Shown here: one piece after another, positions 13,901 to 49,378 of the stretch
How positions within the stretch are numbered: position 1 is the first letter of the stretch
Layout of the letters: every line of letters begins with the position of its first letter
From: Antedon mediterranea
Lineage: Eukaryota > Animalia > Echinodermata
Length of the DNA: 64,000 nt
Reading direction: 5' to 3'
Assembly (NCBI RefSeq): GCF_964355755.1
Contig: NC_092675.1
Span: 25,950,912 to 26,014,911 of the forward strand
Notes under the pieces: generated by a model
The model's database searches: none
What the model was told of the DNA's origin: nothing
The model's input: only the letters and a program-made list of their open reading frames with translations
Program-made: the position numbers and the translations under genes

Positions 13901-16900
13901 CAAAAACCACAGAAAACTAGTTAGCTCTGCATTTTACATATTTTTTCCTGTATGATAACAGACAGCATCAGATAGTTGGACAATACAATACCAGTCAGAG
14001 GTTCGATGTTTAAGAGTGGATGTCTTTATTTTCTGTTTGAAGTTATACATTAATAATTGCATTCTATAAATCTCTCTATCTACTATCAAACCAGTTTGAC
14101 AAAACTGTGGTAGTTATATAATTTGATATGGTAGTAATATGACATCATCATGTCCATATATGGGCACATCACATTTTGTTGTCACCTAAAGTTTGATAGT
14201 GTACACAGAGATTTAGACCTGCATTTCTACAGAAATAAAAAGTTAATTTGTTAGGGATCTTTTGTTTATATTATGTTGTTGTTGTTGTCACATACAATTT
14301 GATAGACGTGTAGAATGAGGTTAAAGAAAGTTTAGCAGAAATCAGTTTTGTTTCTTTATTTTACAGAGTTCTCCACATACAAGATGGATGGCATATGAGA
14401 CGTTATTGTATAATTCTTTCTCTGAGAAGAGTAATATGCAAGTGCTACATTTTGTTCAGAATAATTATTTGTAAAGCTGTATTATAAATATTGATCAAAT
14501 TAGTAGAGAAATATGTGAAGAAACTATACTGTTACATAACTATTGTAATGGCAACATAATCATTCTAATATAGGGATTAAGGATGTAATTTTGATGATAG
14601 TTATTATATGAATATGATTTTGATTTGATGATTATGACAATGTGATAGTGTTTATAAGGATAAATATTAATATATATAAATATTTATATTAACAGGATAA
14701 CAGAATAGGATTGGTAAATATTAATTATTAATCTTTTTTTTTTTCAAATAGCTGGTCATTTGGAATTATCTTGTGGGAAATTTTAACATTTGGTAAGTAT
14801 TGAGAATTATGCATTATTCATCTGTTTTCAACAATAATTATTTTGTGAAAAAAAAGTACAATAAAATAAATATATATTATTAATTACTAATTTCTGTTTT
14901 AATTTTAAATTGTAACCTGTCATTATTGTATGTTTCTTAGGAAATAAACCCTACAAGAATATTCAGTTGGACAAGTTACGAGGTCATCATAAGGAAGGAC
15001 TTCGACTTCCTAAACCTTCCACCATTCCTTCTGACCTGTAAGTACTGTATTTAACATAGCAATAAATAACTCTCAATTAAAGACCAAACTAGGAAATATA
15101 TAACAGTAGTCCAGAAGAACATTATGTGGTTTAAAACCTTATCAATAACAATGGAAACATCCTGCCAAAGCTTCATCTAGATTGGTTGTCAAATGGCAGC
15201 ATTCAGCAAAGAGGATATTATACAGTTTTATATTTGAGTTTTCATGAAGTAAAACGTTTTCTTTGGAACTTTAGTATTTTTCATAGTTTTGTTCGTTTCT
15301 GAATTTAGATCGACATTGTTGTCACAGTGTTGGAAGCTACAACCTAAAGACAGACCAAACTTCGAATACATCAATAATCTACTAGATAAACGGTGTGCTA
15401 ATATGGAATTACAGGTTGGTTTCAAATTTCGAAACTTTTGAATAATAATATATATTCAGATAATATTCAGATAATATTTATTTAGATAATAATGAATGAA
15501 TATATACAAAATAGAAAAAAGATATTAAAGTGAACATAGATAAAGCAGTAATTGGTAGTCATTATTATCATGGATCCCTTCTAGAAGTTAAAAACTTGTC
15601 TCGTAGGGACCCATAACAAAACACATTACTAAAAAAATAAAAATAACCTAGAATATATAATTATATAATTTAGGATAAAAAATTACAGTATAATAACATA
15701 ACTAACATCTTCTTTATAAAAATTATTTAAATTATATTTCAATAGTTTCATGATAATTATAAATGAAATAACTACCGATATTGGTAAATGAAAAAAAAAT
15801 ATGTATACATAAATTATAATTCCAGTATATATATAGTATATACTATATATACATTATATATAGTATAGATTAAAGATTGCAATAATAAACAACAACTAAT
15901 ATTTTGTGTAAGACATAAATAGTATATGAGTATAAATAATGATAATAATAAATTGACAAGTTATCAGTTACACTTACTGCTATGTTGTTCAGTAGCTGTA
16001 TTATGAATGAGTTTTTTTTATAGTAGAAGAGATACCTTCAGATCCCTTTCCTATGGGTTTCCGGCATCATTTGTTGAAAATGTCCCCTAATATGAGTGTT
16101 CCAAAGGAGCAGTCATATTGTAGTATACTCATAATTACCAGCATGACTCGATCTTTAAGAAAATAATTAGTTGTAAGTTGTTAAAGGTTTTATTTATTAG
16201 TTCTATATTTTAATCAATTTTCTCTTCATTTGTTTTTTTAGAATGTTAGTAAAAGAAAGGAGGTGTTTGCTTCCCTCACTAGGATTGGTTCAGCAAGTGA
16301 TCACATGACTGCTTCTCACATCAAACAACTCGAACACCTAACAAATACCAGTATTCAAAATGTAATTGTTAGTTGTTAGTTATAGATTGTAATGTTGTGA
16401 TGGTGGTAAAAAACATGATGATGATAATGATGATGGGGTTGATTGTCAACGGTTGTCACTGTAATTAAGCGCCTAAAGATGATTATACAAATATGATTGA
16501 TATTACAATGAAAATGATAGAGGTGATAGAAAACATTTTTGTCCAGTGTTCATAATGGTGATTTTGATGTTGTTTGAAAATGTCAGTGTTGATTGAATTT
16601 CAGCTGTGAGAAGGAAGAGGTGATTTCAGTTCACAATGTTGTTTGTCAATAATAATTATACTGGTTACATTGTCAATGTTACAATGATTTCTTGATGATT
16701 AGATTAAAGATTCAATACCTGTTCTTTCATGTAATTGTGATTATATTTTTCAGTCTTCTCCTGCTAGTCGCCTGATGGCAGTGCAGTATGCTGGTACAGT
16801 CTTCCCAGGGAATCATGTTCCATCTAAGTTTGTACTTCTTCTTGCCTGTGGTGATGAGTAAGTATACTTTTCTCTTTTACACTTTCTTTTCTCTTCTATT

Positions 16901-19900
16901 CATTTCCCTCTATTTGACATCTTTTTCCTCTTCTTTTCTTTTCTTTTTCCTTGTTTCTTTCAATTTTTTCTACTTTTTGCTCTTCCATTGCACTCTGTCT
17001 TTCCTTTTCATTTTTTTTAGCTTTCTTTTTTTCTCATCCTTTAGTTTGTCTTAGTTCTATTTTCTTCCTTTTCTTTTCCTTTAATCTTTCTTTTCTTTAC
17101 TATCTACTAAAATTTAATTGTTTTTTTTAATTTTTAAACTTTTTTTTATTAGGAATGATACAATACGTAGTGAAGCCGTAAACATTCTCCGTGCTCACAC
17201 AAAGGTCAGTGAAGCTGACATAACATCCCATCAGCCAGCTGGAACTTACATGCCATCATTTCCTGAAATGGCATTGCATCTGAGGTCAAAGGTAACAGTA
17301 AGTGGGAAATGTGGTGACTTTCAGAACAGAAATTGGAAAACACATTTCAACTGTTTTAATTTACAATTAACTTTAAAACAATTTAAACTGTTAAACATTC
17401 AATAATTGGTTGGCATGTGTTTGTTTATCTGTCCTGTCGGTTTTGTTTTTAGTGTTAATGACTGCATTATGAGGATGATTTGTTTAATTGTACGTAATTT
17501 TAATTCTTTTTGAATATTTTTCTAGGCTGCAGAAGCCATGAATGCTCCAAAGCTGAAGTCACAAGGCCCTCTTGGCACCTTTACAATCCCATTCCATCCT
17601 GGGTCTTTTGAGAAGGTAACGCATTATTGCTTGCGCTTTTGTAATCATCATTCATTATTATATTCTAAATTATGAAATTAGGTTAATTAATAGTTAAAAA
17701 TAAATAACACTTTATATTTTAAAATCTCAACTTTATTTTCAGAGGGTAACCCTCTGGCATCCAGAATGACAAACGTACTTAATTAAATTAAACTATTTAT
17801 GTGCTTTCTATAAATTTAATTTATCTTTTCTAGATATCGGTTTACTTACGAATGTGCTTAGCTTATTCTGCCGGTGTTACGCCAAATGTAAGCACCATCG
17901 AACAAAGGCAGAAACAAGGCCCTGCTCTTTATACATACATTCAAGGCCTTCTACAGAACTATAGTGGTAGTCGACACAATCCTCTCATGACATACCTAGG
18001 CCTACTGAGACAGTATGTATCAGCTATAGGAGGTGGGGCGGCTATGCTGCGTCTACTAGAACTAGCATCTATTGCACCGAGTAAAGTAGGGCCTGAGTTT
18101 GCTACCAAAACTGAGCATTTAAAGGTAGGTTTTTGATGTAGTACAAGAGTAAGTTGAGTGGCCGTGCGGTTAAGACAGTGGAACCGTAATTACATAGCCA
18201 TAACATCGGCAGGGGTTCGAGGCTCACTCACTCCATGGTTCTGGTGGTAGAACGAGTCTTCTCGGATAAGGACTATCAACCGTAGGTCCAGTGTACACAA
18301 CTAGCTCGTGTGCACTTTAAAAGAACCTAGTACATCTTTCGAGACGAGTAGGGGGTTACCCCGGTGTATTAGTACATCACAGCCACTGATCACCAACTGG
18401 GCCCTCTGGGAGACCAGTCTTTGACTGAAGAGGTCGCCCAGTATAAATATAAAACAAAACAAAACAAAAACTAGAGCAGCACCAGTATTTTCTAATTTTG
18501 TAAAGAGTAATTAACATTCATAATGCTGTTTTGTTTATATTTCTAGGCCCTAGTGGAGTCTACTGATGATAAAATGAGGGAATATGCAGCACAGATGTAT
18601 GGTATTGTTGCTTGCTATATGGAGAGGCCTAGCCTCAAGCAAGACCTTAAACATTTGATACACTCCATTGATCATGACGTAAGGGAATTGGTTATAACTA
18701 TTGCTGAAAGTTTACTTTACACCTCACTCAATAGGTTATTGGTTGGTTTGTGCATATTGATTTGTTAGTGAATTTTTGTTTTGTTTTATTTTGTTTCAGA
18801 ACTATGCTACTCAACATGGAGCCATATTGGCTCTTGGCTACATGATAAGTAAGCTGATCGAGAAAGAGAATAAGGATGGCAAAAGCTACATCCAACGTGA
18901 CAGAGACAGTCTTGATTCCTCAGAAGATGATGTTTATAACGATGCAATGAAAGCCATTGGTAAAACATGTTTTATTTTAAGAGATTGATTCTGTCAAAGT
19001 GGTGTTCAAATAGAGGAAAACCTGTAAAAATAAATGTTAAAAGTGTATAAAATTATTACAAACATTCTTTGGTTTTGTTATAGGGGCTATGCTTGAATCC
19101 ACCAATAAAGATTTAGTTTCTGCAGCCTGTGATGCCATTGCTGCTGTTGCCTCTCAAGGGGCACTGCCACTCAGTGGTGGTGGTAATGGTAGCTTCAAGG
19201 GCAAGAATAAGGGCAGTACATCAGTTACTAAGCATTATGTTGTGAAACAACTGACACAGTTGATCAGTAATGAGGGCTTTGCAGAACAGGTAAGAGCATT
19301 TAGGATTACTTCAACATTTTGTTTAAATGCCCCTCCTTTTGGATACCACTATTTAGGGTATATATGTTTTAACACTACCCCTATTATATTATTATTATCC
19401 CGAAGATATCCCCAAAATTGGGCATTCATTTTAACTGTACTTAAAACTGACCATAAGTTGTACTAGTATTAAAAAACTATCTTGGTTTTGATGATACCGC
19501 TAATTGTTTACTTTAGTTTCAAATACATTAAAATTATTATTATGTCTTAATATGTTTAGGTAAAAATAAAAGCTGCTAGAACACTTGGCAATCTTATTGT
19601 CGGTGAAGCAGATTTCCCATACAAAGAAATTGTAATGGAAGTATTAACTAATACAATTGAGGTGAGTAAATGTATTTGATCAAAGAGTCACAATAGTACT
19701 GTGATACTGTTATAATATTTTTACATTGTACATAGATGAGACAATTTAATTTGGTCATTATAGAACTATAATTGTAATGGATATCTCTTCCATCTTTCAT
19801 CAGAATTCAGCTGCCAAAAAATCAAACCACATTGAGCTTCACTTTGGCTTAGGAGATGCTTTGGGTACTGCCATGCAGGGAAGAAGTGCCCCAGAGGGGC

Positions 19901-21320
19901 GTGACCAGTGGCTTGAGGTGACAGCTTATGATGGTTTAGGAGACATAGTTAATGGAAACCTCAGTGAATGTATTGAAACATTGTTGATGGGTTTCAAGAA
20001 CAGTGACAATGAGAAGTACAAAGAGGTGAGTACAGCTCTGTCTACACTATCAAACTAGTTTGAAAAAAAGTGTGATATGCTTAAATATGATAGTGATATG
20101 ACATCATTATGTCCATGGGCACATCACATTTTTTTGTTTGATAGTGTGGACAGAGCTTTAGATGACCACGAGTAAAATGTTCATTTTATGGTTTTTGGTT
20201 AATAGCAGCTTTTCAAAATAGTGAACGAACTACTGTATTGTTTTTGATACTATCTTAAATATCAATTTGTTTTTTAGGCTGTATGTATCAGGCTTTTGAT
20301 TCTTGTAGAAATCTTTTATCAACGTGAGGAAATTCAGGTAAACAAAATTTAATTTTGATTTATAATTTTTAATACAAATATGCTATTACTATATTATTGG
20401 CTGTTTATATATAAATAAATCGAGTTTATTATCAATATTTACTAATGTTTAAAGCCATTAATTATATTTTGAGTGTCATTGAACCTTTTATTATAATTAT
20501 AATATTATTTCATATTTAAACTTTGTTTTAATTTAATTAACAGAGCCAGCTACCAGATCTTAAGAATATTATCACTCAAAAAGTTCGAGAGTGGGATGGT
20601 ATGTTCAACCGATTTATAAAAATATCTTCTTTGTACAGAAATTAAGTTCTTGATACAAAAGCAGATTTAGCCTTAAATTGTTGCTATTTGAACTCCTATA
20701 TGCAGTAGCGTACACAGGGGAAATGGTCCCTAGTTTAACACTTCTTGGGGCTGGAGAATTGCATTAGGGTTGTTTATGCTCTGGGGCACCTTAAGCTATG
20801 GTGCCCCTGGGTTTAGCCTTTTAGTGCTCATAGTTGATACGCCACTGCCCAATGTGAATTAAGTTATATTTTTTCATATTTTTTTTTCTCTTTTGGTTTT
20901 TGTTTGTTATTCATAACATATGTATGTTGAATCGACTATTATGTATTTTATCCGTTTATTTTATATTGACACTGTTGATTCGTCTATTTGTTTTTTAAAT
21001 ATTTTTATATAGTTTATTTTATATCATTGTTGTTACTTTGGGAGTACGGAACCTGAACTCTTGTTATAGTGATTAGGTTCACTTTTAGGTTCCTGCCTAC
21101 TCCCTTAGTTTCTGTGTTTTGTTTGTTTGTAACTGGTTTTTGGCAATAAATAATAATAATAATAATAATGTATAATTTTTGAAATGAACAATAATATAAT
21201 ATAGCTTATTTATTTATTTATATTCCAGGTTCTCAGCAGATACAGTATCTTCCTGAAGAGACCCAGTCTAGGTTACTTATAGCATTAAAGGCATTAAAGG
21301 CTGCTGAGGAGATTAACTAA
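1..21320 (+). CDS. Putative chimeric receptor tyrosine pseudokinase: acidic repeat / Pro-Thr stalk / 6xEGF / FN3 / TM / dead TK domain / ECM29-derived HEAT region. Multi-exon; 5' end lies outside the window.
   Basis: The hand-assembled exon chain has compatible splice phases and no in-frame stop from the acidic exon (ends 1941, ATG|gtaatt) to TAA at 21318-21320. Components are listed as separate features below. The kinase-to-HEAT junction (15414/16242, phase 0) is inferred. Confidence 0.7.
3908..5638 (+). repeat. Tandem exon+intron duplications encoding Pro/Thr/Glu mucin-like stalk units (EIPTSETVRTPPPPPPSIPPPPPFTTPRVDQNETEEVVTEYEEVTEFMTT)
   Basis: Phase-0 exons at 3908-4057, 4223-4372, 4472-4621, 4718-4867, 4967-5116, 5216-5332 and 5498-5638, each bounded by ag/gt. 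The period is ~246-249 bp and the introns are near-identical. Confidence 0.9.
5853..8968 (+). CDS. Six EGF-like domain exons
   Basis: Exons 5853-6123 (CQSNPCLNEATC), 6445-6558 (CDSDPCLNGAVC), 6740-6853 (CNESICLNGGVC), 7431-7544 (CASAPCFNDATC), 8223-8333 (CFSNPCMNGGEC) and 8852-8968 (CSFVPCLNGGQC). All show the 6-Cys pattern with phase-1 boundaries. Confidence 0.92.
6983..7089. mobile_element. Degenerate MITE family (ends CTAGTGGAAACCAAGCTT)
   Basis: Related decayed copies at ~22957-23098, ~34820-34890 and ~54436-54538 share ATTGGT...TTGCGTT...CTAGTGG..ACCAAGCT-like sequence. Confidence 0.5.
10306..10447. mobile_element. Short (~130-160 bp) MITE family, representative copy; ~10 copies in the window
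   Basis: TIR AGCTCTGTCTACACTATCAAACT and internal GTGCCCATATATGGACATGATGATGTCA. Other copies lie at ~13580-13737, 14070-14213, 20034-20158, 22564-22678, 27406-27540, 28650-28783, 29265-29350, 36045-36184 and 52990-53118. Confidence 0.85.
10548..10838 (+). CDS. Fibronectin type III domain exon
   Basis: The exon translates as QPSNFTVT...ATMTW...YSFNNLKSNTVY...FKT, which carries FN3 hallmarks. It is a phase 1-1 exon, preceded by a Ser/Thr-rich exon at 9833-9985. Confidence 0.8.
11177..11376 (+). CDS. Transmembrane exon
   Basis: Hydrophobic stretch MLFVMLALVLVILIIFVVTVMYM followed by the juxtamembrane segment TGRTQNSSSSYYPTRQK. Confidence 0.88.
11740..15414 (+). CDS. Tyrosine-kinase-like (pseudokinase) domain, 8 exons
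   Basis: Exons 11740-11941 (WEIP...VFVKKLR), 12092-12199 (AELE...HQNIVNLIGA), 12602-12792 (FEYCELGRL...ISKGLAHL), 13354-13479 (KHCLGSHNI...KVCDYG), 14367-14437 (RWMAYE), 14752-14792 (WSFGIILWEI), 14941-15037 (PY...GLRLPKP) and 15309-15414 (CWKLQPKDRPNF). Confidence 0.92.
16242..21320 (+). CDS. Diverged partial duplicate of ECM29/ECPAS (central HEAT repeats), 13 exons, ~590 aa, open frame
   Basis: Exons 16242-16361, 16754-16857, 17153-17291, 17526-17615, 17834-18124, 18547-18678, 18800-18959, 19084-19289, 19560-19661, 19804-20025, 20278-20337, 20544-20598 and 21229-21320. They are colinear with the ECM29 exons at ~39012-32909 (-). Examples: VFPGNHVPSKFVLLL vs [25 protein letters not shown] vs [18 protein letters not shown] vs MPSFQEMA. 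Confidence 0.9.
18150..18470 (+). mobile_element. tRNA-derived SINE with a Deu/Nin-like central domain
   Basis: A box (TGGCCGTGCGG), B box (GGTTCGAGGC), core GGATAAGGACTATCAACCGTAGGTCC...TTAAAAGAACC...GAGTAGGGGGTTACCCCGGTGT and an (AAAAC)n tail. The domain assignment is from recalled consensus. Confidence 0.75.
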
Positions 21321-23329
21321 AACAAGACCAAAGTTATCGCCCATTTAATGATGAAAACCCCACCAAAGCAAGAGTATCTAACTTATAAACATTTTATTTT
21401 TATATGTAATTTTAATCATTTTTCCACCAACTTTTCATTTATTTTAGATTGTTAATTATTTACATATATAAATCCAACCTGTTTAGATTTAAATTTAAAG
21501 GTTAAAATATAGTAAAAAATAAGGAAAAAATTGAAACTGTTGGAACTTCAATACCCAGTATAGACACAATTTATTTGAGCATTGTAATGTTTGTAATTAT
21601 ATAAAATTGTATGTAGTTTTTATAACTCCTGACAAAACAATATTAAAGGGAAACCTCGGTCCACAGTGTTTATTTGTATACTGTATATGGGATAAGTGTA
21701 GTTTTTTTTTTAAAGATTTTTTATATTCTCAGGAAAATATTTTAAATACATTTTTATTGGTGTCTTTACAATATTGCAAATTTTACTTCATATTCATATT
21801 TTTGTATTATCAATTATAATATGATTTTTAGCTTTTGAAACATTCCATAGTGTAAATACAATTGGTAGGTTCATTTATTTTGTATTTTTAATTGCAGTAC
21901 TTGTAGAGAAGTAGAGGTTGTGTATTTTGTCAGCTGATTATTTATAATATTGATCTGATACATTTTATGTATGTACATTATAACCAATTTTAATCAAATA
22001 TAATCACCTGGAATCATAATTAGGCCAAGAAACTGGAAAAAGAAGTCGGTTTTACAGCGTCTAAATTGTACTGTGATGTGGTATGCTGTAGGTTTTATAG
22101 AGCAAGTCTTCCCTGATGCTTCGATCAATATACCTTACTTTAACATATTAATTTCGCCACTTTGCACTTTCGCTTGTCTAGATTTAGTCAAAGGAAGTAT
22201 AATATTTAACTAAACAGATGCTAGTACTTAAATAGAGCATAAAATAAATGCAGAAAATGAAATTAACAAATTAATAAGTAAATAACATTAGAACTGATAA
22301 ATAATATAGTACATTGTTTGGTAATGTTTTAGAATTTAAGGAAGGTGAGAAACATTGTTAAAGGGACATATTTTGCTGGCTGACACATGCTGGTCAGAAT
22401 GTTAAGTATACTGTAGTGTAGCATCTCATTTTATGCAAAGTAAATAAACAATTATATATGTTTTGTAATATGTTTTAGTTATGGTTTTATTTTGTAACTG
22501 TTCAAAAAGGGCATTAACCAAAATAATAATTATTAACAGTATCTTGTATCAGACTTTATTTAAAGCTCTGTTTACACTACCAAACTTTATGCGACAACAA
22601 AATGTGATGTACACATACAGTATATGGACAATGATGATGTCACATCACACTTTTTTTTTACTAGTGTGGAGAGAGCTTTACAGTGTATTGTAGTTTTGAA
22701 TACGATGTCCAATGTATGATTGTACTTTGTCTTTCGAGCAAATTAGCACACACTTATGAATTCTATATGAAGACAAAATTTTGGGTCACATCTTGTAACA
22801 AAAAAATATCTATATACATAAATCAAACATTCTTAATTTCTAGTTTGATTGTAGATTCAACAAGAGACACTCAGTTATTAGATGTAATAGAAATGTATCA
22901 ATTTATTATGAAAACATTCTAAAAATCACTTATTGTTAATGTCAATGTTTACAAAAGAATGCAACACGGACGTAAGTAAAACGCAAGTAATTTGACCAAT
23001 CACGACATGATGAATCACTATTCTTTACATTGTGATTGGTCGAATTACCTGTGTTGCGCTGACATGTTTGTGTTGCATCCCAGTGGGAGCCAAACATAAG
23101 TACTTGCCAAAGTACTTCGCCTTATAAGTGTCCATATAAGTATGTCCTAGATGATATTAGTTCAAGTATCTTTCAATAAAAGCCATATCTGTTTTTAGGT
23201 ATAGTTATACTGTATCTAAAATTCATTGAATAATTCCAAAATTAGACTATAATCTGGAAGTGATTGGTGGGAAGTAATGTATTTAAAAATAAATTAATTA
23301 AACTTAGTATTAAATAATAGTAATTTATA

Positions 23330-23670
23330 CACTTTTCAAATCTGCAAAATGTAACAACTTGTAAGAAGTTGTAACCAGGTTTGCATAGTGTGAATACAAT
23401 TTTGCGGAAAATCTCCTATGATTTCACATGGGTCGCTTGTAAAATCTCGGAAGAAAAAAACACCAACAAGACTCCTGTGTTTTTATTCCGAGTTCTTACT
23501 GCGTGCGTGTGTATTGCCCTGGTATTAACTGACCAATCATAGTAATCAAATACATAGCGCGCAACTATTCGATTTCACAAGGCTCGCATGTGCGTGTGTT
23601 AAAACATATAACAAGTCAGGAGATCAAACCTGGTTACAACTTGTAACAATTTATGCAGATGTGAAAAGGT
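23330..23670. mobile_element. MITE with ~45-bp imperfect TIRs
   Basis: CTTTTCAAATCTGC...AAGTTGTAACCAGGTTTG at the left end pairs with CAAACCTGGTTACAACTT...GCAGATGTGAAAAG at the right end. Confidence 0.7.
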
Positions 23671-24054
23671 TATTAGTATTAAAGATACCAAAATAAACAA
23701 ATCCAATGCCATCCACAGCATTTAAAATTGATATAGTCTATTATAGTGATATAAAAACTAATATGATTATTACTATTTTCATTTTTAAATGTTCATTTAA
23801 CAGCAGCTGATATGTTTCATTGGTGATAATTCAATTTGAAAAAAAAATAAAATTTAATAAAATTAATAACATAAATCATATGATAATAGCCTATTATAAA
23901 AATAAATAAACTAATTAATATTTTGTTCTTATCAATTCAACATTGTAGCTGATATACTTAAGTTAAAATAACTGCATCAAAAAAGAATTGTGTAAAAATA
24001 ATATGAATGAAATCATACATCCTCTTATGGGATTTAAATGCTTAGTTTATTATT

Positions 24055-30000: not shown

Positions 30001-33000
30001 CTTAAAATTGCCTGAAACGTACTCTTATTTCATCGAAAATAAATTTTGAAAATTTTAAGCGCGCTTACGCATGCGTTACATGCGCTACGCACGTAATTGT
30101 ATTGCCATATGATGATTTATGCCCTGAAATTTATGAGTACCAAATTTTATTTAATTGTGATTCATGGTTGTGAAGATATGATTACAAACGTGATTTCGTT
30201 AAATCGTGCGTAGACCGCGTAATTTTTTATTGCGCACCGTGAAAACATAACCACATCGATTCCTGGCCATAAGGAATATTCTGTGAAAAATTGACTTAGC
30301 TAGATTAAAATCATAAAGCGATAAAACGCATAGTGATACCGGACCGACAGACAGACAGACCGACAGACAGACCGACAGACAGACCGACAGACAGACCGAC
30401 AGACAGACAGACAGACAGACAGACCGACCGACCGACATAGTGAACTATAGAGTCGCTTCCACGCGACTAAAAACTATGTTACAACTAAATAACAATAAGT
30501 AGTCAAATACACTAAGTTTAACATGAACATTTAATGCACTACAGACGGTTTTATGAGAAGTACCTTAATCTTCAGGAGCTTGGCTATTGATTGTTTATAT
30601 AATATTTTAGAGTGTATACTGTAGAGGTACTGTAATCTTTGTCTGTTCATATGTATTTAAGAGTCAGAGTTTAAACTGGCAAATTAAAAAAATTGAAATA
30701 AATAAATTAAGGACACCAAACCATGGTCGAAAAACTAATATCGACAACAAACTAACTTACCAAATCTGTTTAGCCTTATCAATTCCACTTGAAAGACCCT
30801 TGAGTAAGCACGGTAAAACAGATGCAATGGCTTCCACTCCAAGCTTACCTCTATCAACATCACATAGTTTGATTGACACCTGTCATAAGTAATAGTATAA
30901 AATCAAAAAAAAAAAATACATTTTACTACAGTGTAAAATATATATCAAATGTTCCTTCTAATAATAAATGATTATCTAACTTTATTGTGGAAAACTCAAT
31001 GATATTATTTTTATTTATTTAAAATCATTTTTCGGAAAAAAAAAATGCAATGTTTTATTGTACCTTACTAAGTTGTCTACAAGCACCCTCAGCAGCCTCT
31101 CTCACCGTTGCCTAAAAGAAAACAGTATCATCACAAGTTTGGTGAATTCCAGGCCAATGATCTAGATTTCTAGAAGTTGTGGTCGTGGTTCAACCAGAGA
31201 AGTACTTTTTTTGCAAGTATTCTCAAATGTTATTATATACTCCTTAAATTAAAAAGTATGCTGAACCTGTTGGGTTTTTGTGTTTACAAATCATATACAT
31301 ACCATACTATAAGCATAATTAAAAAGGAAATTATAATTTTTTTAGAGAATTTTCCAAAGATTACAGAAATAATAAAGTGAAAATCATGTACCTTAATATC
31401 ATCAATGACTCTTAAACATGTACTCCATAATTCTGGAAGTTCACCAACCAAACTATCCAAATCTCGATTCCTCAAAAGATCCACCATTGCTCTGCAGCTA
31501 GATTCACGATTCCTCCACTGAGGGTTAGTCAAGTTTGCCTGAACATCCTTCAGTATCTCCAGTAAATACTGGTCTGTCACCTTCTTCTCGTCGGTTACAA
31601 GAGCAGACCAGATACTGGTCATAGCTTGCTGGATCTGTCTGTTAGGGTCGTACTGGTATCGGTACAGCCTGGGCACTATCTTTGGTAAATGCACCGCTAG
31701 TTGCTCACTGGCTTGCTTGGCAATTGTTCCAAATCCAAATGCAGCCCCCTAGATAGTAATACGATCGAATATCAATTATAAATCGACAATAGTTACCATT
31801 GTAAATGAACACTATTAATTATTTGAAAGAAATTAAAAGTATAGACACTTCTCAGTTTATTAATTACTGTATATCTACATGAAGCAATTTCAGAATTGCA
31901 ATTTTAACAATTTTATGCTTAATGGGGGAGATACGAGGTAAAATAATGCTAAATATATTTAAAATACCTTTCTAGAATTCCACATGGCATTGTGACTGGC
32001 CAGATGCATAAATTTGTACACCAAATCCGGTTGGTTGAGATCACTAGCCAATGAACAAAGCTCTTTATAGGTTGAAAGGCCACCTCTGAAATACATAATG
32101 AAACATTTGAGTTGGTCAAGCTATTTATTTATTATTTATTTTTTATTTATTAAATTTTCTGCCATTTACAATACAAAGAAGACAACAAAAATATAAAAGG
32201 CAAGGAAAGACCACCTATGCTAGTTGGTGGCAGCACAATATTTGTTAGGCTTAAGTATAAGTGAATGTTAACCTACCCTGTGGGGTTTTTACCAAGAGTT
32301 CCCTCATCGAACAGCTTGGTATCATCTGTCACGGTCTGCTTAGCTCTGGAATAAATTTAAAAAAATGCAAATTCAAGTTGTAACCGAGTGAATTTGCACT
32401 GGATATTGAATTTAACTAGTTTTGGTGTAAAGAAATAAACAGGTAATGTGATTTACACCTTTTCAAGGCTAAATCCAAAAATAACATTTTTTCTCCATTT
32501 TACCTTTTACCAGTCATAAGTCGATCCACTAATGCAGTAACCAATTCTTTGCGGCCCTCTTCACTGCTCTGCTCATAAACAAGACTTAGGCCTTTGGAAG
32601 CCACATCCTGTGTAAACTCTGTAAAAAGATATCCATCATTACTGTTAGTTTATACCACATTCAATATTTTGTTAACAGTGGCTGCTGTAAATGATAACTT
32701 ATTTTGTATATTTGTCATCTGTCTTCACTGCCATTATCTTTCTGATTATTGTTTCCCTTAATTAATAATTAATTTGTTTATCACTACATTTAACACAAAC
32801 AATCATAATTTATGAACATATTACCATCACCCTATTCTTATCATCAACATAATTTTCAACATTGTTATCATATTTGTTACCTTAATGTAATCCTTGTAAA
32901 ATACTCACCACTGTTTTCGCTCAGCAAGTCCATAAAGGCCTGTTGTAGTTCCTTAAATCTGCACTTTAATGCAGGATGGGCACCACACCTCTTTACCATT

Positions 33001-36000
33001 GACAACAGCCAAATACAAGCAGCCTATTAAATACACAAGAAACAGACGTCATTAATACTTGAAGAGAGATTAACAGTGGTGTAACTGCCCTAAAAATAAT
33101 GCGAGTGATATTCGTTATTCAAGTCCAACACCCAAGGTGCTCCTTTATTCCTGTTTCTTGAATGTGAACCAGATTACTAAAACAAAACATAACAATGACC
33201 TATAAATGCATGTCTAGCAATATATGTGGCTCCTTAAGCGTCAAACTGAAAAGTTTTGTATTTAAGTTAAAACAAACAATATAAAAGACGATCCCTTAAA
33301 CTAATTAAAAATGCAAAACCGTGTCGTCATAGCAACGGATAACAAAATCCTTGCGGTAAACTCCTCCTCCTACAACGACGCGACATGCCATTGACATTGT
33401 ACAGCTATACGTAAATCAATTAAAATGATCACATGAGCTATAAAGTTTTGCGAAGATTATCATAACTATAGTATCCAGGTGCTTAATGCAATGCAGTAAC
33501 TTTAACAATGAATTATTAATACTAATACTTAGTAAATAATTAAATTAAGGTACAACAGGTCAAAGCCATATCTCATCAATATATATAGGCCTAGGCCTAG
33601 CTAGGTAACATAACCGAAATTAATGGCGTCTCAATAGAACTTGGCCTAATAACATTAAATCTGTATGAGTTATTGATCAATAAATGTAGCGGAATGCAGC
33701 TTACCGAAAATAGCAAAGTCACCCGCTATCTGCAGTACATAAACAATTCAGGTAAATATCAAAAATTAAACAATATATGTCAATATCCTATAATTAAAGT
33801 CACTAGCTGTGATCATACATCCTCTCCTCCCTAATGCAAGATACCTCCTCACATGGTCCTAAAATGACGTCATTTTCTTAATAATGCGCCCTCTCTAAAT
33901 ATAAACTAGTTTGGGACCAAACAAGTGGTTTTTCAAAAAAGGTAAAAACTTTGTGGAATTTCCAAATCAACTGCACCGACTATCTTTTATCTACCTGTTT
34001 CTTATGTGGATTCTCGCATGTGACATATTCTTTCAAGATTTTTACTAAGGTCCACTCCACTTCATCTTTTGCTGCTTCTTCCACAGTAAGGTCAAGGGTC
34101 AGTTCTTCCTGTCTCCAGACATCTCTCCTGGCAGGACAATGGACTGCTAATGCTGCCTGGCTAATAGCTTCTCCGACAGTAAACTGTAGTTCTATCTGCT
34201 TGGTCTAGGAAAACAAATTCGAAGAGTACAGTAATTCAGTGTTTTTAATCATGGTAACATTTGCAGGACACTGTCTTCGCAATAAAAGAAGAAATCATTT
34301 CAGATGTTCTGCTGTGGTAGTCAAAACATGGGCTTGAAAAACAAGGAAGACCAGCACCGCATACATTGATGTACTAGAGATGGATACTGGTATGCAGAGA
34401 AATTAACTGGCTGTCACAATGGCTTATAGGAAGTTATAGAGGAATCTAGTCATAGTTAGAGTAGCAGGGCTCTTAATATCAAATAAGAAACTTTCTTAAA
34501 ACCAGAAGTTTATTAGTATACGTAAATTATTTTCCAAAGCTTACATTTGCAGTTTTCATCAGTAACATCAAAGCCTCTTGTGTATGAGGAAAATCAGGAT
34601 CTCCGATTGGTATAAAGCCAAGGTTCTTGCAAGCTCTCTCCTTTAACTACAAGACAAAAATTGTTACATTAATTTAGTATTAGTTAAATACATTTTGAAC
34701 AATTGTATCCAAATATTACACCACTGGTGCAATATCATTAAATTAATTGCATTTTTATTAAAATATTACTTTTAAGTAAGACAAAATTAATTATCAGCAG
34801 TCACATTACATAATGATTAAGCTTTAGTCATTAGGATGCAACAGAACAATGCAAACATTATAATCATCTAAACTGTCATTTGTGATTGGTCAATACTTCG
34901 CATGAAGTGGGGTTCTAGATGTAATATTTTATTACCTACCATACATTAGCATACTAATTAAAGTGTTGTGTTAATAAATTTACATTGGGGCAGATTTAAC
35001 ATTTTTTTTATCTATGCAGCTACTGTATTTTATTTATACTAATTAAAGTACCTTATGTGGGATTTTGATGGAGTAAAGTTTAGAACTAAGTTTCTTGACA
35101 ATAGAAAACAGATTTATTTCATCATCTTCATTCCCCTCTACTTTCATATCTTCTACTGCCTCATCTGTATCAATGATTTTATCTTTGTTGATATCATCTT
35201 TCTTGCTATTACTCTTTTTGGCTAATTGAGTTTTGCTTGCTCTTGGAACTGGGAGCGTTCCGTTGCGGCCAATTTCACCAATGGCTGTACAGGCACCTAG
35301 ACATAATATTTCTTGGTCTTTATCTAAAGTTTTTGCTGCAAAATGAAATAAATAGATTGAATGATTATTGCTTCTACAAGTATATGAAAACAATGGGACT
35401 GACACACCCAATGGTTACTATGTCTCAACAGTTCCCTTAATGGCCACATAATCATTTTTATTTGTCATTGATGATTGGCTGTACTTATAAATCATCACAA
35501 TTTTATTATTATTTATTACCATTACTGTAAATAGTCACTGTATATATTTTATAATCAATATTATTTTGTACAAATCAATGTACCAACACGTTATTTATGG
35601 TTATCATTAATATGAAAATATATTACGATTGATTGAATAAAGTCCACAAGAAACTTTAATTTTATATGCTCCTTATATTTCATTTTTCAAAGGTGGGACC
35701 TCTGTCATATATTAAAAAAAACTTCAATTTAAAGAAGTCAAACCTATAAAGACTACAGCTTGTTGTATAACTTCAGCTAGACTCTGTGAAGTAGCAGGCT
35801 CATCATCAACTTCCATATTTTCCACAACGATATCTTGCTTTCTGTCTAGTAGATATCGCCTACCAATGGTGTAGCCTAAGCCTAAAATGGCTCCATGCTG
35901 TACTTCAAGACTCTAAATTTAACGAAAATGATATTGCAAACACTATATAAATGTTACATTATACAGAGATAAATAGATACTATAACGGTATAGCCATTGT

Positions 36001-39000
36001 GAAATGCATTGAGCAATTTTTTTTGTACATACTGTATATAAAAACTAGTGGAGAAAAAAAAATGTGATGCGCCCAAATATGGTAGTGGATGCTTAAGTAT
36101 GGTAATGATATGACATCATCATGTCCATATATAGGCACATCACATTTTGTTGTCACAAAAAGTTTGATAGTGTAGACAGAGCTTTAGACCTGCATTTCTA
36201 TAGAAATAAAAATTTGATTTGTTAGGGATCTTTTGTTTATATTATTTGTATGGATGATAATAGGACTGAAATAAACAAATGTAATTGATTAATGCTTTGT
36301 ACATAGCTATGTTTTTCTGTGGGTTATAAATTCCAGAATGAAGTGTTTGCATTATTAAGTGAATTACTATTAAAAATTTACCTTTGTTTTTGCCAGACTG
36401 AGCATATCAGTAATGATGGCAGTTAGTTGTCTCTCATCAGATGCATTAGCCACGATTGACATCAACTGAGCTGAAAGATCACGAATGGCCTCGCGTCCAG
36501 ATTTCATAAGGTTCTGAATCACGAAAAAGATATCATGAATTTAATATTTACATTCAGGAAATAAAAACTGGTCGTAAGGGTCACAATACAGTAGTCTTTA
36601 TTTATTTATTTATTTACTTAACTTTTTTCAAAGGGTAGTTCTAAAATATAAGTAAAGTACCTGAAATGGGGGTTGTTTTTGCAATATATGGATACAGAAA
36701 AATAAAGATAATTTTTTAATTTTTATTTTATTTTTTCACTATTTTTTTTTTTTTTTTTAGAATGCTGAAAATATTGTTTTCGTTTACAACATAAGAAAAA
36801 TGGTTTTCAATACTTGGAACGCACAATATAAAAATTAATTGAAAATTAATTAATTAAAAATGAAAAATTAAATAAAAAAATGCAATAAAAATGAATAAAA
36901 AGGTAAAAACCGCTAATACCTTGATCCAGTCAAGCTTCTTTAAAAACATATCAGCAAACAGATCTGTAGCAATTGAAACGATCTCTACAAGACAGTACAT
37001 TGCTTGAGGTTCCGCAGACACCTTTAAAAGCTCCATGATGAGGTCGACATAATTAATTAAGGTCCCTCGTCCAGGCCCTTTGAGCATCTCCTGAACATGG
37101 CAGTACAGACCAGGGGCTTGATCTTGCATTTCCAGAGCATCCATTACAGGGGTCACACCTGTCTCATAAACTAGCGTTGACCTCAGGTAAAAGATGATCT
37201 CGTTAAAGACAATTGGTGTAAATGGAATAACCATTGTTCCAATGGTGACTCTAGACTTTCCTTTAAGTCGTAATTTAGCCTGTGAAATAATGTATAAGAT
37301 TTTATACAACTACCTACATTGATAATTCAATATTAAAAAAAGAAAGACAATCTGTTACATTTATTGATTCTACAAGATGATTAACCAATCATTTTTTAAA
37401 GTAAATGAAACCAAAAAGAACTCTTAAACGTGTTTAAAACATTGACATATTTTATTCCATTATAACAACTCAATTCGGTTATTAATTTTTGTCAGTATAC
37501 AATACAAGAACAGATTTCACAGGGCAAATGTGGAGATATTCTAGTCAACATAGGAAAGTGCTGGTTTTTGTGAGAAATATGCCTGAAACTTATGTTATTA
37601 TCTTATTTTAAGACACATTGCCAAAGATTATCGTGAGTGAATTTGTTCACGGTCCTAATACACAGGAGATAATCTCTTCACAAGACAAACACACAAAATG
37701 CTCTACAATTGTTGTTTTGTCATAAGAACAAATCCTGACATCCAACAGGGAGTGGCAGTCGAACATGTTAATCATTAATCCACCCCGATAAGATTTGTAG
37801 GCAAGTATCTCACCACCAGGCCCATGCATTCACTTACTTGTTGGTATGTATAATGAGCCATCTCCTGAAAACTAGGCATTAAATCAGAACCTTTTGGTGA
37901 GTCACTCGGTAAGGACAAATCATGTTTAATCCCAACATGCACTGCTTTCAAACACATCTGACGAATATCTTCTTTGCTGAAATAGATTATCAACATAATA
38001 AATAACTATAAAATATATATTTTGATATCTCATTTATGCATGCTATAAGTATAGAGTTATATAAACTAGACCTGAACATGTTTTAATTGAATCTTGACTC
38101 CTGGACTCACCTATCAGCGGTGTTGAGAAGTAGTACATATCTAGATGGGATATGATTAGAGGGAAACACTTGAGCTGCATACTGGGCAGCAGCTAGTCTG
38201 GCTTGTGGCTCAGCCTGAAAATACAAAATGATGGTTATCCTTGCATTTTGATATTCTTTAGTGCTGCCCATTTGAAATTAAAAATGGAACTCGATAAATC
38301 AGAGAAATAAATACATTGTTTGGACACTTAGCACTTAACATAGTTTTAAATCATTTGTCAGATTTGCTTCAGTATGGGAAAAACGATACAAGAAGTGCAA
38401 TGGTGGAAAAAAAACCAGAAATAGAACATATACTTGCCATTTATGTACCGCTAAGAAGGAATGCAGAGAGCAGACTAGGCCTAGGCCTCACAGTACAGTA
38501 GGTGGGTTTAATGTATATAACATATAATTCATTCATGTTTTGTATTTGTTGAATGGAGACAATATTTCATGAGTTGAAATACTGCTCTATTTATCTTGGC
38601 TTCACCTCGTTGAATAGAGCAGTCAATTTTTCAACTCATAAAAAAATCTCACCTCAACTAATAAACATATATATATTAAAAGTAAAAGGCCACTTTGACA
38701 CTTATGTTTAAAAAATCAGAACCTTTCAAACACAATAATACAATGGAGATAATCAAAACCAGACAAAAAAATTTAATCGAAAAAGAATTTAAAAAATATG
38801 TATCTGAAATAATATCTTCTTAATAAACTCATTTAATCACATTAGTAGAAATCTCATTCATTCTCAAATTCAATACAAATATTCTTTACCTTTTCTGCAT
38901 TAGTCATAATAATCGCTTCCATCGCCATGAGATTAGCTTTTGCCATGTTTTTAAAAGAATCGGCCATCATGGACAAAGACTCTTGGATATGCATACGCAT

Positions 39001-42000
39001 CTCTGGGTCTTCCTATAAAACAAAAAACATACACAACTATAAAAATATAAAAGTATCTCGTTTAATAAAAATAATCGGTGTTTAAACGGTCTGATGCAGG
39101 TACTGTATCTTGTTAGTACAAATATTAATTGCTTCGTAGGAACTATTTATATTCTGGACAGCAATTTGACCTCCTGCTATGCTTCATTGCTTGTCAGATC
39201 TGAAAGGTCATGGTTTGTCTGGCCTAAGATGACCTAGGCAAAGTTTACAGCTTTTGCTTTCTGCAGAAGAAATCAATTATTTCAGGTGACGAATGATTGT
39301 ACACTGCATAGTTCATGAGAGGTCTTTTGTCATCCAATGAGAAGCATTCTAATATCGGTTTGAGTCTTCAGGAGGGTCCTGCGTAATCAAAACCATCGTT
39401 ATGCTATAGATACTACTCGCAGCAATCACTTGCAATTTGACATTTCTAGTGTAAAAAAACGAATTGAGTACCTTGCACAGTGAATCAAAGAAGCTCTGTA
39501 TTATTGAGATGTCATTTGTAACTAGTTCTGGCAGCCTCCTGAAATTATAGAAAATGATAGGTAAACTTTTAACTCAAATAGGTGTAATTTACTCTCTATT
39601 AATATTAAAACATATTTTCACATTTGACACTGCAAAGGCCAATTTACAGTAAACGGTAATTGTAAGCGGAAAGCCGCATGACTTGTCCCATTTACACAGT
39701 GCGCGGAGTTCATGAGCGGTGTGACGGAAAGTAGGTGCTTGTAGACCTTGAGACTACTGCATGTTGCAAGCACGGCGCTGGCTTGAACTAGTCTAATATG
39801 ACTGACTGTCAGTAGGCCTAGCATAGTAGCCTACCACATACAGGCCTACGTTTAGAAGGACTTGTTGTCTAATAACAGGTAACATAGAATTATTTCCTAA
39901 AATTATCTCCTAGAATTACCTTCTAGATTATCTTTCGAGACTTAACCTTTTATTATGGGTTGCTTTTAAACAGGAAAAACATATCACAAAATAGATTTAA
40001 TTATAAGAATTTCATTTTAATTACTTTTGCTTACTTTGATAATTTAGCTACTGCTGTGTAGGCCAGTCCTTTCTGTTTGCTTTTCTGTGGGAAATAAAGT
40101 ATTTTGTATGCATGTTAGTAATGTGAAATTATTTGTTTGTAACAAAAGCTGGATATAGATATAAACAATATTCTATATGTTTTTAATAGTTGTATATACT
40201 GTATATACTCACTGTGATAGTTTGTGTACCTTCTATCATCATTGGCATTAGTACTGGTCCCACAGTGTTCAAGCTCGCCTCACTGCTGTACGTGAACACA
40301 TGGTGTACAAACTGGAGGCCCATAAGTTTTAGTTTATCATGACTAGTTTCTCCACTAACACATTCAGAAATCACCTGTTTACAGTATCCAGTAAATACAA
40401 GATAAAAATTAAAAACTATAAACCCATTTTATATCTTTTCATATAAAAGGAAGATCAAAACAACATGGATGGCAAAAATCTAAAAGGAAACAGAACTTTT
40501 CACATGCGGACATATACACATGCTTGCTCAAAAATGTTCACAAATACTTGGCAAATGTCATTTATAATTTTTTGTGTGTAATTTTTGAATTGTAAATTAT
40601 TTTTAAAATGTTTACAGCGCTTTGGTCTTTGGAAAAAGTGCTATATAAATCACTATAATAATAATAATCTTCTTTATTCTGTATTTCAACTGAACAGTCA
40701 CTGACGGCCTGGTGTCCTCAATCATGAGGACGGTTAACATAACAAGTAAGTATCTAGCCTTTAGTAACTGATGAGTATGGTTGGTTGCTTCCCTTGACTT
40801 GAGTAGGTATGGGAACAACTTTAACTTGATTCTTGTTGCCACTGCTGGTCGTTTGTCATCAGCTGGCATGTTTTCCTGAAATAAAAGAAAATCCTTGAAA
40901 CATTAATCCTAATAAATACTGTAGTATATTATTACTGAAAAAAGATATAAATAGATTCAGATTCGAAACAGATAAATAAACAAATAGAATAAACAAATAA
41001 GAGTGTATTTACCACTTTTGTTGTAACTTCATTGCCAAGAAATAAAGTGTAAAGCTGATCTATCACTTCAGAATCATTCCAGTCTACCTCACTAAAAATA
41101 AATAATAATATGATAAAAATTGGTGTCAAAATATAAATAAAAATTGAATTGAAAATTCAAAAGAAGTAGAACATTTTGTACCATTTATGTTCCAGTCTTC
41201 CGTAACAGAAAAAAGATAAAAAGAAATTTAAAAACAAGTTGAACATTTTTGATATTGTATTCCTATTTTCATGCTTACCTCTGAAATCGTTTAATTAAAA
41301 TTTCTGCCCCTGTTACTACTCTGAAAACAAAATTAGAGAGCATAAATCAAATTATGAAAAAAACCAATTTAATAAATTTACCATTGCAATCTACCAAATT
41401 AAAAAAATAGTTATTAATTGTTTTTAAAACAGAGAAATGGTTATGGTAATCTGGCAACTGAGGAGTAAAAGTATTAAAAGCTAACAAATATTTTTAAAAT
41501 CCACTCAGAACATAGAGATAATGTTATAAATACTAGAGGGACAACTAAGTGGCAATGAAGCTAGGTGGTAATTAGGAGGTCTAACATGGCTGTCATCTGG
41601 CACATCTAAGTGCCCATTAACTGCATGGTAGCATATACATTGTGGCTCACGTTTTGAGCTTTGCTTATTATAAGTTGTAGGTCTATACCAAGGTCTCTGT
41701 GAATTTACTCACTTGTAACGAGTGTCTGCTGTAGCCACAATCAAATGGCAAATCACATCTTTCTCTGGCAGGATATCTGCACTTAAAAATTTGACAATAC
41801 CAACTTTCCGCTAGAAAAGCAAATTGATTATAGTTGTTTTAGTATATGGAAGTAAAGGTACCGTAGGAAAATGTGAAAATAAAGCAATGTCTAACATTTT
41901 TCTGGGCCCCATTGATGTTTTCAAGTCTGATATTGTCATAAGTAGAGAAAAACTAGTTTTTGATGCATTTTGAACATTTGTATGCAAAGTTCCTAAAAGC

Positions 42001-45000: not shown

Positions 45001-45659
45001 AATAAACTTCTCCAATTCTTCATCCGATGTAACAGACCCAACACGTAGAAACACACGCTCTAATAATGCTATAAAAATAAATCATAATGTATTATTTTTT
45101 ATTTAATATATGAAAACACTATATAGTACTCAGACATTGTATTTTCTGAATATGTATTCCATTATATGTATTGTATCAGGATTTGTTTGTGCAATTTAAA
45201 TTTGTACACGGGTTCATTACCTTTTGCAATTATAATTGTGCATGTTTTGTTAATTAATCAAATTCAAATCGCACTGCACAATTTGAATACAAAGAGCTAT
45301 AATGTTAAATTGTTCGTCCAGCAGGCAGGGCAGGCGTAGCGAGTACACAATAGTAGTAGGCCGGTCTAACCTCTAGCCTAGCCCCTAGTTACTAGGGCCT
45401 AGTTAGGCCTACAGGTCTACTACTACTCTGAGGCATAGGCCTACTGTGTACTAGGCCCTACTAGCTAGCTAGCCTAGTAGTTAAGTTAGGCCTAGGCTAG
45501 GGCCTAGCTAGCTAGGCCTAGGAGTTATGTAGGCCCAGCCAGAGAGAGGCTATAGCTAGAGTAACAAGTAAGGTCTCCAAACTAGGCCTAAGCCTAATTA
45601 ATGCATTTCATAAACGTACAAAAATACTCCTACTTACCTAATTCATCTTGCGCGTTCAT
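24055..45659 (-). CDS. ECPAS: Proteasome adapter and scaffold protein ECM29 (HEAT-repeat), full-length multi-exon gene
   Basis: Start exon MNAQDEL (45659-45638), then LERVFLR...[11 protein letters not shown]...VRKK. Further motifs: [47 protein letters not shown]...[32 protein letters not shown]. Stop at 24055. Confidence 0.96.
29655..30473 (-). mobile_element. Non-autonomous Helentron/DINE-like (HINE) element with GTCT/GTCG microsatellites
   Basis: T-run termini and subterminal inverted repeats AGTCGCGTG / CACGCGACT. It carries two copies of CATAGTGATACCGGACC(GACA/GACC)n CATAGTGAACTATA and is CpG-rich relative to its flanks. Confidence 0.7.
43085..44250 (+). mobile_element. 5'-truncated non-LTR retrotransposon (CR1/L2-like RT C-terminus) in an ECM29 intron, antisense to the host
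   Basis: RT motifs [43 protein letters not shown] and GPKLWNDL. There is a frameshift at the A-run ~43493-43509. The 3' UTR ends AATAAA...(TTTGAA)2. Confidence 0.9.
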
Positions 45660-48255: not shown

Positions 48256-49135
48256 CAGGGCTCGAAATTCACGCTAGCAAACTAGCATTTTGCTAGTAGA
48301 TTCTTGATAATTGCTAGTTGAAAATTTCAAAACTAGCAAATGTTTGCTAGTGTAATTTTTGAAAAAATACGTACTTTTTAGCTTAGCCACGCTAGCCGCA
48401 AATCGCTATGTCGACAACGGCTAATAGGAACCAATTTGGTGAAAACAATTGTTTCATTTACACGCCGCCAATTTACGTCAAGGAAACGCGAATAGCACCG
48501 TGAATCATGTGGTAGCATAGTTGTTAACGATGTGCATTATAAACAGCAAGCTTTTCCCCAACACAAAAGCATGTGCATTTAGTACGTCGCTAAGGATTAC
48601 ATCATCAGTCACGTGATTACAGAATACTCGATTATCAATTTAAGGATTTAACAAAATAAATATTTTGCCTACACAGTGGTCGAAGCGCGTATTTAATAGA
48701 TTCGTAAATAGTAAACACCCCCCCACAGTTTTGTCATCGGCAATAATATTTTATACATAGGCCTAGTCAATTTTATTCCGCTTCAAATTAAAAGTTTGAT
48801 GTTTCGACCTAAAAAAAAGTGGGCCGAAACATCTCGGGACGAATCGTCCATAGGCCGAAACGCCCTTGATTTGGCTAGCATGAAAGCATGTCTTGATCTT
48901 TTTTTAATTTGGCTAAAAAGGGTACTACTACTACTACAGCTTTGCCTAGCTAGCTAGGCCTACACCTAAAAGCTAGGCCTAGGTCTACACCTAACTAAAT
49001 TCAGATTTGTGTAGAATTTAACTATTTTACCGAAAAAAAATTGTGATTGCTAGTTATGCTGCTGATTTTGCTAGTTAATTTTTTTACAACTAGCAAACTT
49101 TGCTAGTCGAAAAAAAAAGTAAATTTCGAGCCCTG
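48256..49135. mobile_element. Non-autonomous hAT-like DNA transposon with a 5-bp TSD
   Basis: Perfect 14-bp TIRs CAGGGCTCGAAATT / AATTTCGAGCCCTG, TGTAC on both flanks, and repeated subterminal TTTGCTAG/CTAGCAAA motifs. Confidence 0.85.
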
Positions 49136-49378
49136 TGTACTGAAGTGGTTATAGGATTTGTACCAGTAACTTTAAACAAATTAATATATACCATCTTCTC
49201 TACTGTAAATGATACCTTTAATAGTAATTCTCTAAAATTACAAGGTCTTTTGAGGAGCGGAGAAAGAGCACCATCTAGAGTGGTTTGTCAAGTTGTTGAG
49301 TTGAGGATTCTTTTAAAGGGTTTTAAAGAAGTTTATACATTATGTGTTTTATATTTTCATACAGAACTACCAGATATT

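Follow-up and report, generated by a model that had tools for sequence, protein, structure and literature searches.

The window analysed here, a stretch of 64,000 nucleotides from the echinoderm Antedon mediterranea (assembly GCF_964355755.1, contig NC_092675.1, positions 25,950,912 to 26,014,911), carries an ECM29 gene and, on the opposite strand, a receptor gene whose cytoplasmic tail appears to come from the central part of ECM29. On the best reading, exon capture gave rise to a receptor tyrosine pseudokinase whose tail is new within the literature that could be searched, and the family, shared by echinoderms and hemichordates, has apparently remained undescribed so far. There is very little doubt in our minds that the fusion gene is real. 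It is also probable, with clearly less assurance, that three things hold together, namely that the ECM29 block forms the receptor's cytoplasmic tail, that it originated before the echinoderm-hemichordate split and that it acts as a non-catalytic docking scaffold.

The original prediction had seen the central block of ECM29 copied to the opposite strand, about 2.7 kb of DNA separating the two stop codons, and both points stand: parent exons 14-23 recur as twelve exons in the other orientation, followed by a new last exon, and the stops lie 2,734 bp apart. The parent, modelled exon by exon, shares 41-43% identity across its length with full-length named ECM29 proteins. The copied exons span the end of ECM29_N, ARM_ECM29 and then the following HEAT repeats, and they represent the corresponding part of the parent only, not the full solenoid of about 1,800 amino acids with its N-terminal, HEAT_ECM29 and C-terminal set; a search of positions 1..24000 found no further ECM29 parts beyond the block, save one chance-level match (E 7). 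As tblastx between the two regions was swamped by repeats, the exon models were compared instead. The two proteins align significantly, with 157 of 565 residues identical (28%, E 3e-55) and a local score of 529, against 45 ± 5 and a maximum of 70 in 200 shuffles; moreover, a single exon of the copy gives a Pfam match to ARM_ECM29 (E 7e-21).

The exon structure tells the same origin. Nine of the ten parent introns (after exons 14-23) match the copy in alignment column and phase, the tenth keeps its phase and is shifted by 6 columns next to an indel, and the copy carries two introns beyond the parent's set. Introns retained at parent positions bear out the DNA-level origin that had been proposed. 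The exon of 104 nt in which 19 of 34 residues had been counted identical by hand has exactly that number, and the equal lengths reported (104/104, 132/132 and 102/102) are right, with 139/139 as a further equal pair. The preservation of exon lengths and phases holds for these four exons, the phases being the same, but not for the remaining lengths, which differ between copy and parent (120/123, 90+291/360, 160/169, 206/284, 222/210 and 60+55/115). Likewise, the introns were said to show no visible similarity, which is correct except for one dispersed repeat element common to both. This repeat, about 150 bp long, is found in both orientations and reaches very high depth in the sequencing runs X1 and X2. 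The open reading frame of the copy is intact, with no stops or frameshifts, as had been noted. Synonymous sites between copy and parent are saturated (pS 0.75; 45 of 71 four-fold sites differ), so that a ratio of nonsynonymous to synonymous rates (dN/dS) is uninformative for this pair. A pseudogene or a recent segmental duplicate was considered and ruled out on the absence of stops and shifts, the saturated pS and an intron likeness limited to the dispersed repeat.

An internal exon of phase 0 opens the copy, which has neither a start codon nor a first exon of its own. On the same strand, 827 bp upstream, stands the last exon of a tyrosine-kinase domain, ending at a phase-0 donor without a stop. 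Joined from position 5853 onward, 30 exons form one frame of 1,399 amino acids that encodes, in this order, six EGF-like repeats, a linker, an FN3 domain, one transmembrane helix, the kinase and the ECM29 block. Nine more phase-0 exons bring the model to 39 exons and at least 2,405 amino acids, with the frame open at the window edge; the exon at 1..1941 would belong to the receptor on account of its phase and strand. Splice sites are AG/GT throughout except for one GC donor. The transmembrane segment, a 21-residue stretch of hydropathy 3.3 between FN3 and kinase, is the only one of its kind in the window model, as is its counterpart in Diadema, and the layout is that of a receptor tyrosine kinase (RTK), with an ectodomain, one transmembrane helix and a cytoplasmic tyrosine-kinase domain. 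The intron at which the two parts meet equals parent intron 13 in position and phase, and a stop is encountered 9 codons into it. At the other end, a C-terminal helix similar to that of the new last exon is present in the Lytechinus alignment. The original prediction of a functional module is upheld insofar as orthologous fusions in three other species show the copy to be no pseudogene and no artefact of assembly, but the module does not stand alone and is predicted to form the C-terminus of a receptor tyrosine pseudokinase. As to the mucin part of the gene (1-5638, forward strand), recent tandem duplication produced both its 647-codon Ser/Glu/Asp repeat and a set of units, each an exon with its intron, that are about 245 bp long and 84-89% identical; the ectodomain of Diadema, rich in Ser/Thr, does not resemble it.

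When one exon of the copy served as query, only one of 200 candidates matched, the Lytechinus pictus protein of LOC129272132 (P0001), in which kinase and ARM_ECM29 stand in one chain, colinear with the window across the junction (343 of 887 residues identical). Similarly, Diadema antillarum XP_071510669.1 (3,645 amino acids) combines a Ser/Thr-rich ectodomain, EGF, FN3, a transmembrane helix, the kinase and the tail, and a cluster mate of this protein has additional N-terminal EGF repeats; the Diadema model P0163 is colinear with the window model from FN3 to tail, at 34% across 1,096 columns. In Saccoglossus kowalevskii, XP_006820085.1 ("ECM29-like, partial") consists of the end of a kinase domain followed by the ECM29 block, and the model P0007 of this species aligns with the window at 34% across 642 columns, starting from the last kinase exon. 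The homolog searches together gave 1, 3 and 2 matches among 200, 7,994 and 7,980 scored candidates, respectively, and the profile search covered the best 150 of 21,180. By Pfam, P0001, P0163 and P0165 each contain a kinase domain and ARM_ECM29 within a single protein, whereas P0007 contains ARM_ECM29 and, weakly (E 0.008), the final 24 positions of the kinase. Among 172 proteins compared by blastp, five match both kinase and tail, all of them urchin fusion models, the Saccoglossus protein having too little kinase to count in this test. The junction falls at the same residue in all four fusions (window, Lytechinus, Diadema and Saccoglossus). In the databases, the ortholog proteins are named "uncharacterized" or "ECM29-like", and their N-termini seem to be incomplete. 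In the Lytechinus models P0001, P0004 and P0005, the ectodomain and transmembrane helix are replaced by a different N-terminus of about 100 amino acids, which is also carried by P0050, a fragment of 163 amino acids that stops at the end of the first kinase exon (49% over 112 columns). In urchins, an internal start may give rise to a cytosolic form. The window exon 11740-11941 is directly preceded by an in-frame stop and has no N-terminal extension of the urchin type.

A tree of the block with both copies and their ECM29 relatives, run as the original prediction had proposed (12 rows; the partial row P0046 left out, isoforms unused), unites the four fusion tails in one clade (100/100). Saccoglossus branches first, then the window, then the two urchins, an order that agrees with the species tree, the window being a non-urchin echinoderm. 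Constraining the fusions and ambulacrarian ECM29 to one group gives a p-AU of 0.31, so that this grouping is not rejected. A duplication private to the window lineage, with copy and parent as a clade, was tried and rejected (p-AU 0.0007). From the shared fusion, the tail clade and the rejected copy-parent grouping, it follows that the event likely predates the echinoderm-hemichordate split, so that the copy is ancient, as had been supposed. This split occurred in the Cambrian or earlier. A still older origin of the fusion, with later losses, may also be considered. In Saccoglossus, the contig with the fusion model and the contig with the canonical ECM29 model are both 145,285 bp long; this equal length, the only indication of a common scaffold, suggests that the fusion gene and ECM29 lie next to each other in this species as well. 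Of the local inversion-duplication initially put forward, a local origin is thus plausible. Such a history would have started with a DNA-level copy of ECM29 exons 14-23 being inserted downstream of a gene for a receptor tyrosine kinase that probably lay next to ECM29; the phase-0 donor of the kinase would then have been spliced onto the phase-0 acceptor of the copy, a new last exon would have closed the reading frame and two introns would have been gained in the copy afterwards.

The kinase domain itself is degenerate. The HRD motif reads KHC, EHS and HHS in the three complete fusion kinases, the catalytic Asp being replaced by Cys or Ser, the alphaF Asp is changed to Asn in all three and the Gly-rich loop lacks its first Gly. 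Among the 54 other kinases in the tree, HRD is found in 53, with a gap in the last one, and the alphaF Asp in all. A receptor tyrosine pseudokinase is defined by sequence as lacking at least one of three catalytic residues (PMC13519141), a definition under which the fusion kinases fall, with the HRD Asp absent and the Lys and DFG Asp kept. The kinase is likely to be catalytically inactive. The three fusion kinases form their own long-branched clade (SH-aLRT 100), to which amphioxus RTKs are closest, at 35-38% identity and with the shortest path length; the Tie of Diadema sits in a different clade (quick tree, long branch).

No run is on record as RNA, and X1 was treated as such because it contains a spliced contig; reads were placed on positions 5950-15800 only. 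One contig of X1 links, between 9833 and 11945, four exons of the model, i.e., the linker, FN3, the transmembrane exon and the next one. Pieces of X1 contigs end, according to the from_end column, at modelled exon ends, namely 12792, 14367/14437 (the GC-AG intron) and 15414 (the fusion donor), and the reading of this column was checked against other exon ends. The last of these gives indirect support to splicing at 15414 rather than read-through to the stop in the fusion intron. Among the coding variants listed for X1, which concern the receptor part only, 11 of 13 are synonymous, compared with 22% expected (p 3e-6). The X1 word share of 0.34 was not used as evidence because repeats inflate it. 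Between phyla, the tail retains 35-40% identity over about 580 residues, and 122 of its columns are invariant in all four fusions, including 18 in which the residue is never seen in nine canonical rows and 51 in which it is common to at least 75% of them. This identity and these invariant columns suggest that the tail is under constraint.

AlphaFold2, run on Lytechinus P0001 with a 50-row alignment, predicts a kinase fold and an all-helical solenoid, mostly at pLDDT 75-96, and one predicted helix (405-443) crosses the junction at 422/423. The best solved fold match is FGFR1 (Z 30.6, root-mean-square deviation 2.8, 276 aligned), and FGFR-type kinases fill the fold searches, the matches of which concern the kinase and not the tail. 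In the ESM Atlas, the feature search with kinase plus tail leads to proteins of the kinase-HEAT/ARM type, ULK4 and STKLD1 included, with scores of 0.94-0.98, a likeness to be taken as an analogy of architecture only. With the tail alone, the leads of the Atlas search were all under 0.9; there were no PDB sequence relatives of the tail at E <= 1, three weak matches beginning in the kinase end of the query.

Taken together, these data lead us to propose that the ectodomain senses or adheres at the cell surface, that the kinase domain is without phosphotransfer activity and that it would form, with the HEAT solenoid of about 580 residues, one pseudokinase-HEAT unit. By analogy with SCYL- and ULK4-type proteins, this unit would recruit trafficking or cytoskeletal partners through a surface that diverged from canonical ECM29. 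The receptor likely signals or anchors by protein contacts, with the HEAT tail as adaptor. The copied stretch is the least conserved of ECM29 (22-40% for amino acids 501-1000) and ends where the conserved core starts (58-66% for amino acids 1001-1200), the first 100 amino acids, at 60%, being omitted as well. Just beyond the end of the copied block, human ECM29 has a low-confidence bend at amino acids 1,048-1,148 (10.1101/2022.06.06.495046). The combination of a least-conserved block with fusion-specific residues favours a re-purposed surface over a full proteasome clamp.

Several observations weigh against this proposal. The read span of 5950-15800 stops short of the acceptor at 16242 and of the ECM29 block, a kinase-only isoform is possible if intron 17 is retained (ending after 8 more codons), and the ortholog proteins are automated NCBI models, those of Lytechinus being without transmembrane segment and that of Saccoglossus partial. 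Limited word-based searches yielded no ortholog from sea stars, sea cucumbers or brittle stars, which does not imply absence from these classes, nor from chordates or protostomes. In the kinase, the beta3 Lys, alphaC Glu and DFG Asp persist, and the domain may bind ATP or have weak activity, as reported for HER3. When the X2 changes are added, 11 of 17 coding changes are synonymous (p 2e-4), with 8 further variant rows unlisted, and the X2 haplotype at 12105-12145 (forward strand) presents four amino-acid and no silent changes within 40 bp of the alphaC exon. The AlphaFold2 model has a mean pLDDT of 68.6 and a pTM of 0.55, its pLDDT drops to 58-69 just past the junction and nine ECM29 rows were misplaced over kinase columns in its input. 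Finally, the partners mentioned above are candidates chosen by analogy.

The best placed of the other explanations, which nevertheless strikes us as unlikely, is that the tail keeps the job of ECM29 and tethers 26S proteasomes, or motor and ankyrin partners, to the receptor for local proteolysis at the membrane. The block indeed lies within the N-terminal arm of ECM29 (amino acids 444-990 of the lungfish protein), and in pull-downs from rat cortex, Rpt1, AnkG, Arp1 and KIF5B associated maximally only when the N-terminal region of Ecm29 was present (PMC7041676). A docking model moreover sets the N-terminal shank on Rpn1 and Rpn10 (10.1101/2022.06.06.495046), and the 51 columns shared with at least 75% of canonical rows speak in the same direction. 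However, the copy omits the best-conserved parts of ECM29 and retains the 22-40% middle. The N-terminal half of ECM29 reportedly binds endosomal proteins and does not stay on 26S proteasomes, a point attributed to Gorbea et al. 2010. Yeast Ecm29, in addition, requires two sites on different subcomplexes (PMC4908598). Were the explanation true, an ambulacrarian receptor family would have traded kinase catalysis for a captured proteasome-adaptor arm, through which the receptor would itself place proteasomes, or the transport partners of ECM29, at the membrane, and would signal via local proteolysis or trafficking in place of phosphorylation.

Far less probable still is the presence of two adjacent genes, the fusion being a read-through or a gene-prediction error common to the species. 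The stop inside the fusion intron, an RNA read span that stops short of the junction acceptor and ortholog evidence made of automated models would all suit such an error; on the contrary, a block without its own start codon or first exon, a residue-exact junction identical in four species of two phyla and, indirectly, an X1 piece ending at donor 15414 and not in the intron argue for a single gene. Lowest in our estimation comes a purely structural tail, stabilising the degenerate kinase fold or setting receptor spacing with no partner of its own, which the helix extending from the kinase into the first repeat and the junction length fixed in 4 of 4 fusions would fit, but which is made hardly credible by the conservation of about 580 residues between phyla (35-40% identity), in excess of what a cap for stability would need, and by fusion-specific invariant residues spread along the block. 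The docking scaffold is retained as the preferred explanation, and the features of the window are collected below.

Table 1. Position, strand and characteristics of the features identified in the window.
Feature	Position	Strand	Characteristics
Ser/Glu/Asp-rich tandem-repeat ectodomain exon	1..1941	+	647 open codons; phase-0 GT donor at 1942; N-terminus outside the window
Mucin-like exons rich in Pro/Thr/Glu (n = 8, all phase 0), including five tandem copies of 150 nt	3669..5638	+	AG/GT ends, open frame
Six exons with six EGF-like repeats	5853..8968	+	Pfam EGF on the first; resemble the EGFs at the N-terminus of Diadema P0165
Ser/Thr linker exon, FN3 exon (10548-10838), transmembrane exon (11177-11376)	9833..11376	+	Pfam fn3
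Tyrosine-kinase-fold domain without catalytic Asp, eight exons	11740..15414	+	Pfam PK_Tyr_Ser-Thr; GC-AG intron after 14437
Fusion intron, last kinase exon to copy of ECM29 exon 14	15415..16241	+	Phase 0 to phase 0
ECM29-derived exons (n = 12), from parent exons 14-23	16242..20598	+	About 560 amino acids
New terminal exon with stop codon, in place of ECM29 exon 24 onward	21229..21320	+	
Spacer with converging 3' ends of both genes	21321..24053	.	Candidate poly(A) signals on both strands
Parent ECM29 gene, full length	24054..45659	-	44 exons, 1,903 amino acids
Source block of the copy, parent exons 14-23	32909..39012	-	Parent amino acids 445-1023
Dispersed repeat sites	~10300, 13580, 14120, 20030, 22560, 27400-27540, 28650, 29300, 36050-36240, 53000	Both orientations	

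A few further elements were noticed in and around the parent gene. ECM29 presents a GC-AG intron after exon 10 (40758, reverse strand), placed there by protein alignment only, and the intron between its exons 3 and 4 hosts a fragment of a LINE-type (long interspersed nuclear element) reverse transcriptase on the forward strand (43028-44039; Pfam RVT_1, E 2e-14). Upstream of ECM29 and on the opposite strand, an open frame of 229 codons (49094-49780, forward strand) has no Pfam match. Exons of an ion-channel gene, which we take to be mucolipin-like, are located at 57454-59648 (forward strand), with Pfam matches to Ion_trans and PKD_channel on 58737-58952, both under the curated cut-off.

The interest of the locus resides in a gene birth that can be read beside the donor gene, with exons, phases and junction all visible. 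It also provides a natural dissection of ECM29, since amino acids 445-1023 are marked as a unit that would fold and be selected alone, and bears on which part of ECM29 binds what; the presence of the fusion in Lytechinus pictus puts expression, knock-out and pull-down work within reach. No published description of the fusion was found in the searchable full text, subscription papers (the 2006 sea-urchin kinome, RTK surveys) and bioRxiv supplements being outside this scope, and a literature search by accession returned no paper. The term "HEAT" is absent from the main text, as far as accessible, of the holozoan tyrosine-kinome paper (PMC8662651).

Compared with known systems, the tail is homologous to amino acids 445-1023 of the parent ECM29/ECPAS protein, with which it shares ARM_ECM29, introns and a predicted HEAT solenoid. 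However, it represents only about 30% of that protein, lacks the conserved N-terminus and the conserved core from about amino acid 1024, belongs to a membrane receptor through the fusion and has a clade to itself. Tie-like receptors and amphioxus EGF/FN3 RTKs have a similar EGF and FN3 ectodomain, whereas they keep HRD where the loop could be aligned and none has an ECM29 tail. SCYL and Vps15 are pseudokinase-HEAT scaffolds. In ULK4, which carries HEAT repeats (PMC13727655), as in SCYL1-3 and Vps15, a kinase fold is directly followed by such repeats, but these proteins are cytosolic, stand outside the tyrosine-kinase group and have repeats that are not derived from ECM29; given this other origin, the architecture is convergent. 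HER3/ErbB3, PTK7, ROR1/2 and STYK1 are likewise single-pass receptors with a tyrosine-kinase fold missing a catalytic residue, and HER3 resembles the fusion kinases further in the absence of the HRD Asp and the retention of the beta3 Lys and DFG Asp (PMC13519141); the window gene differs from these receptor tyrosine pseudokinases by its mucin/EGF/FN3 ectodomain and by a large HEAT tail taken from another gene. The Venus kinase receptors, finally, are another invertebrate RTK family with an unusual combination of domains (PMC3703292), but their oddity is the ectodomain, whereas that of the window gene is the cytoplasmic tail, together with a degenerate kinase.

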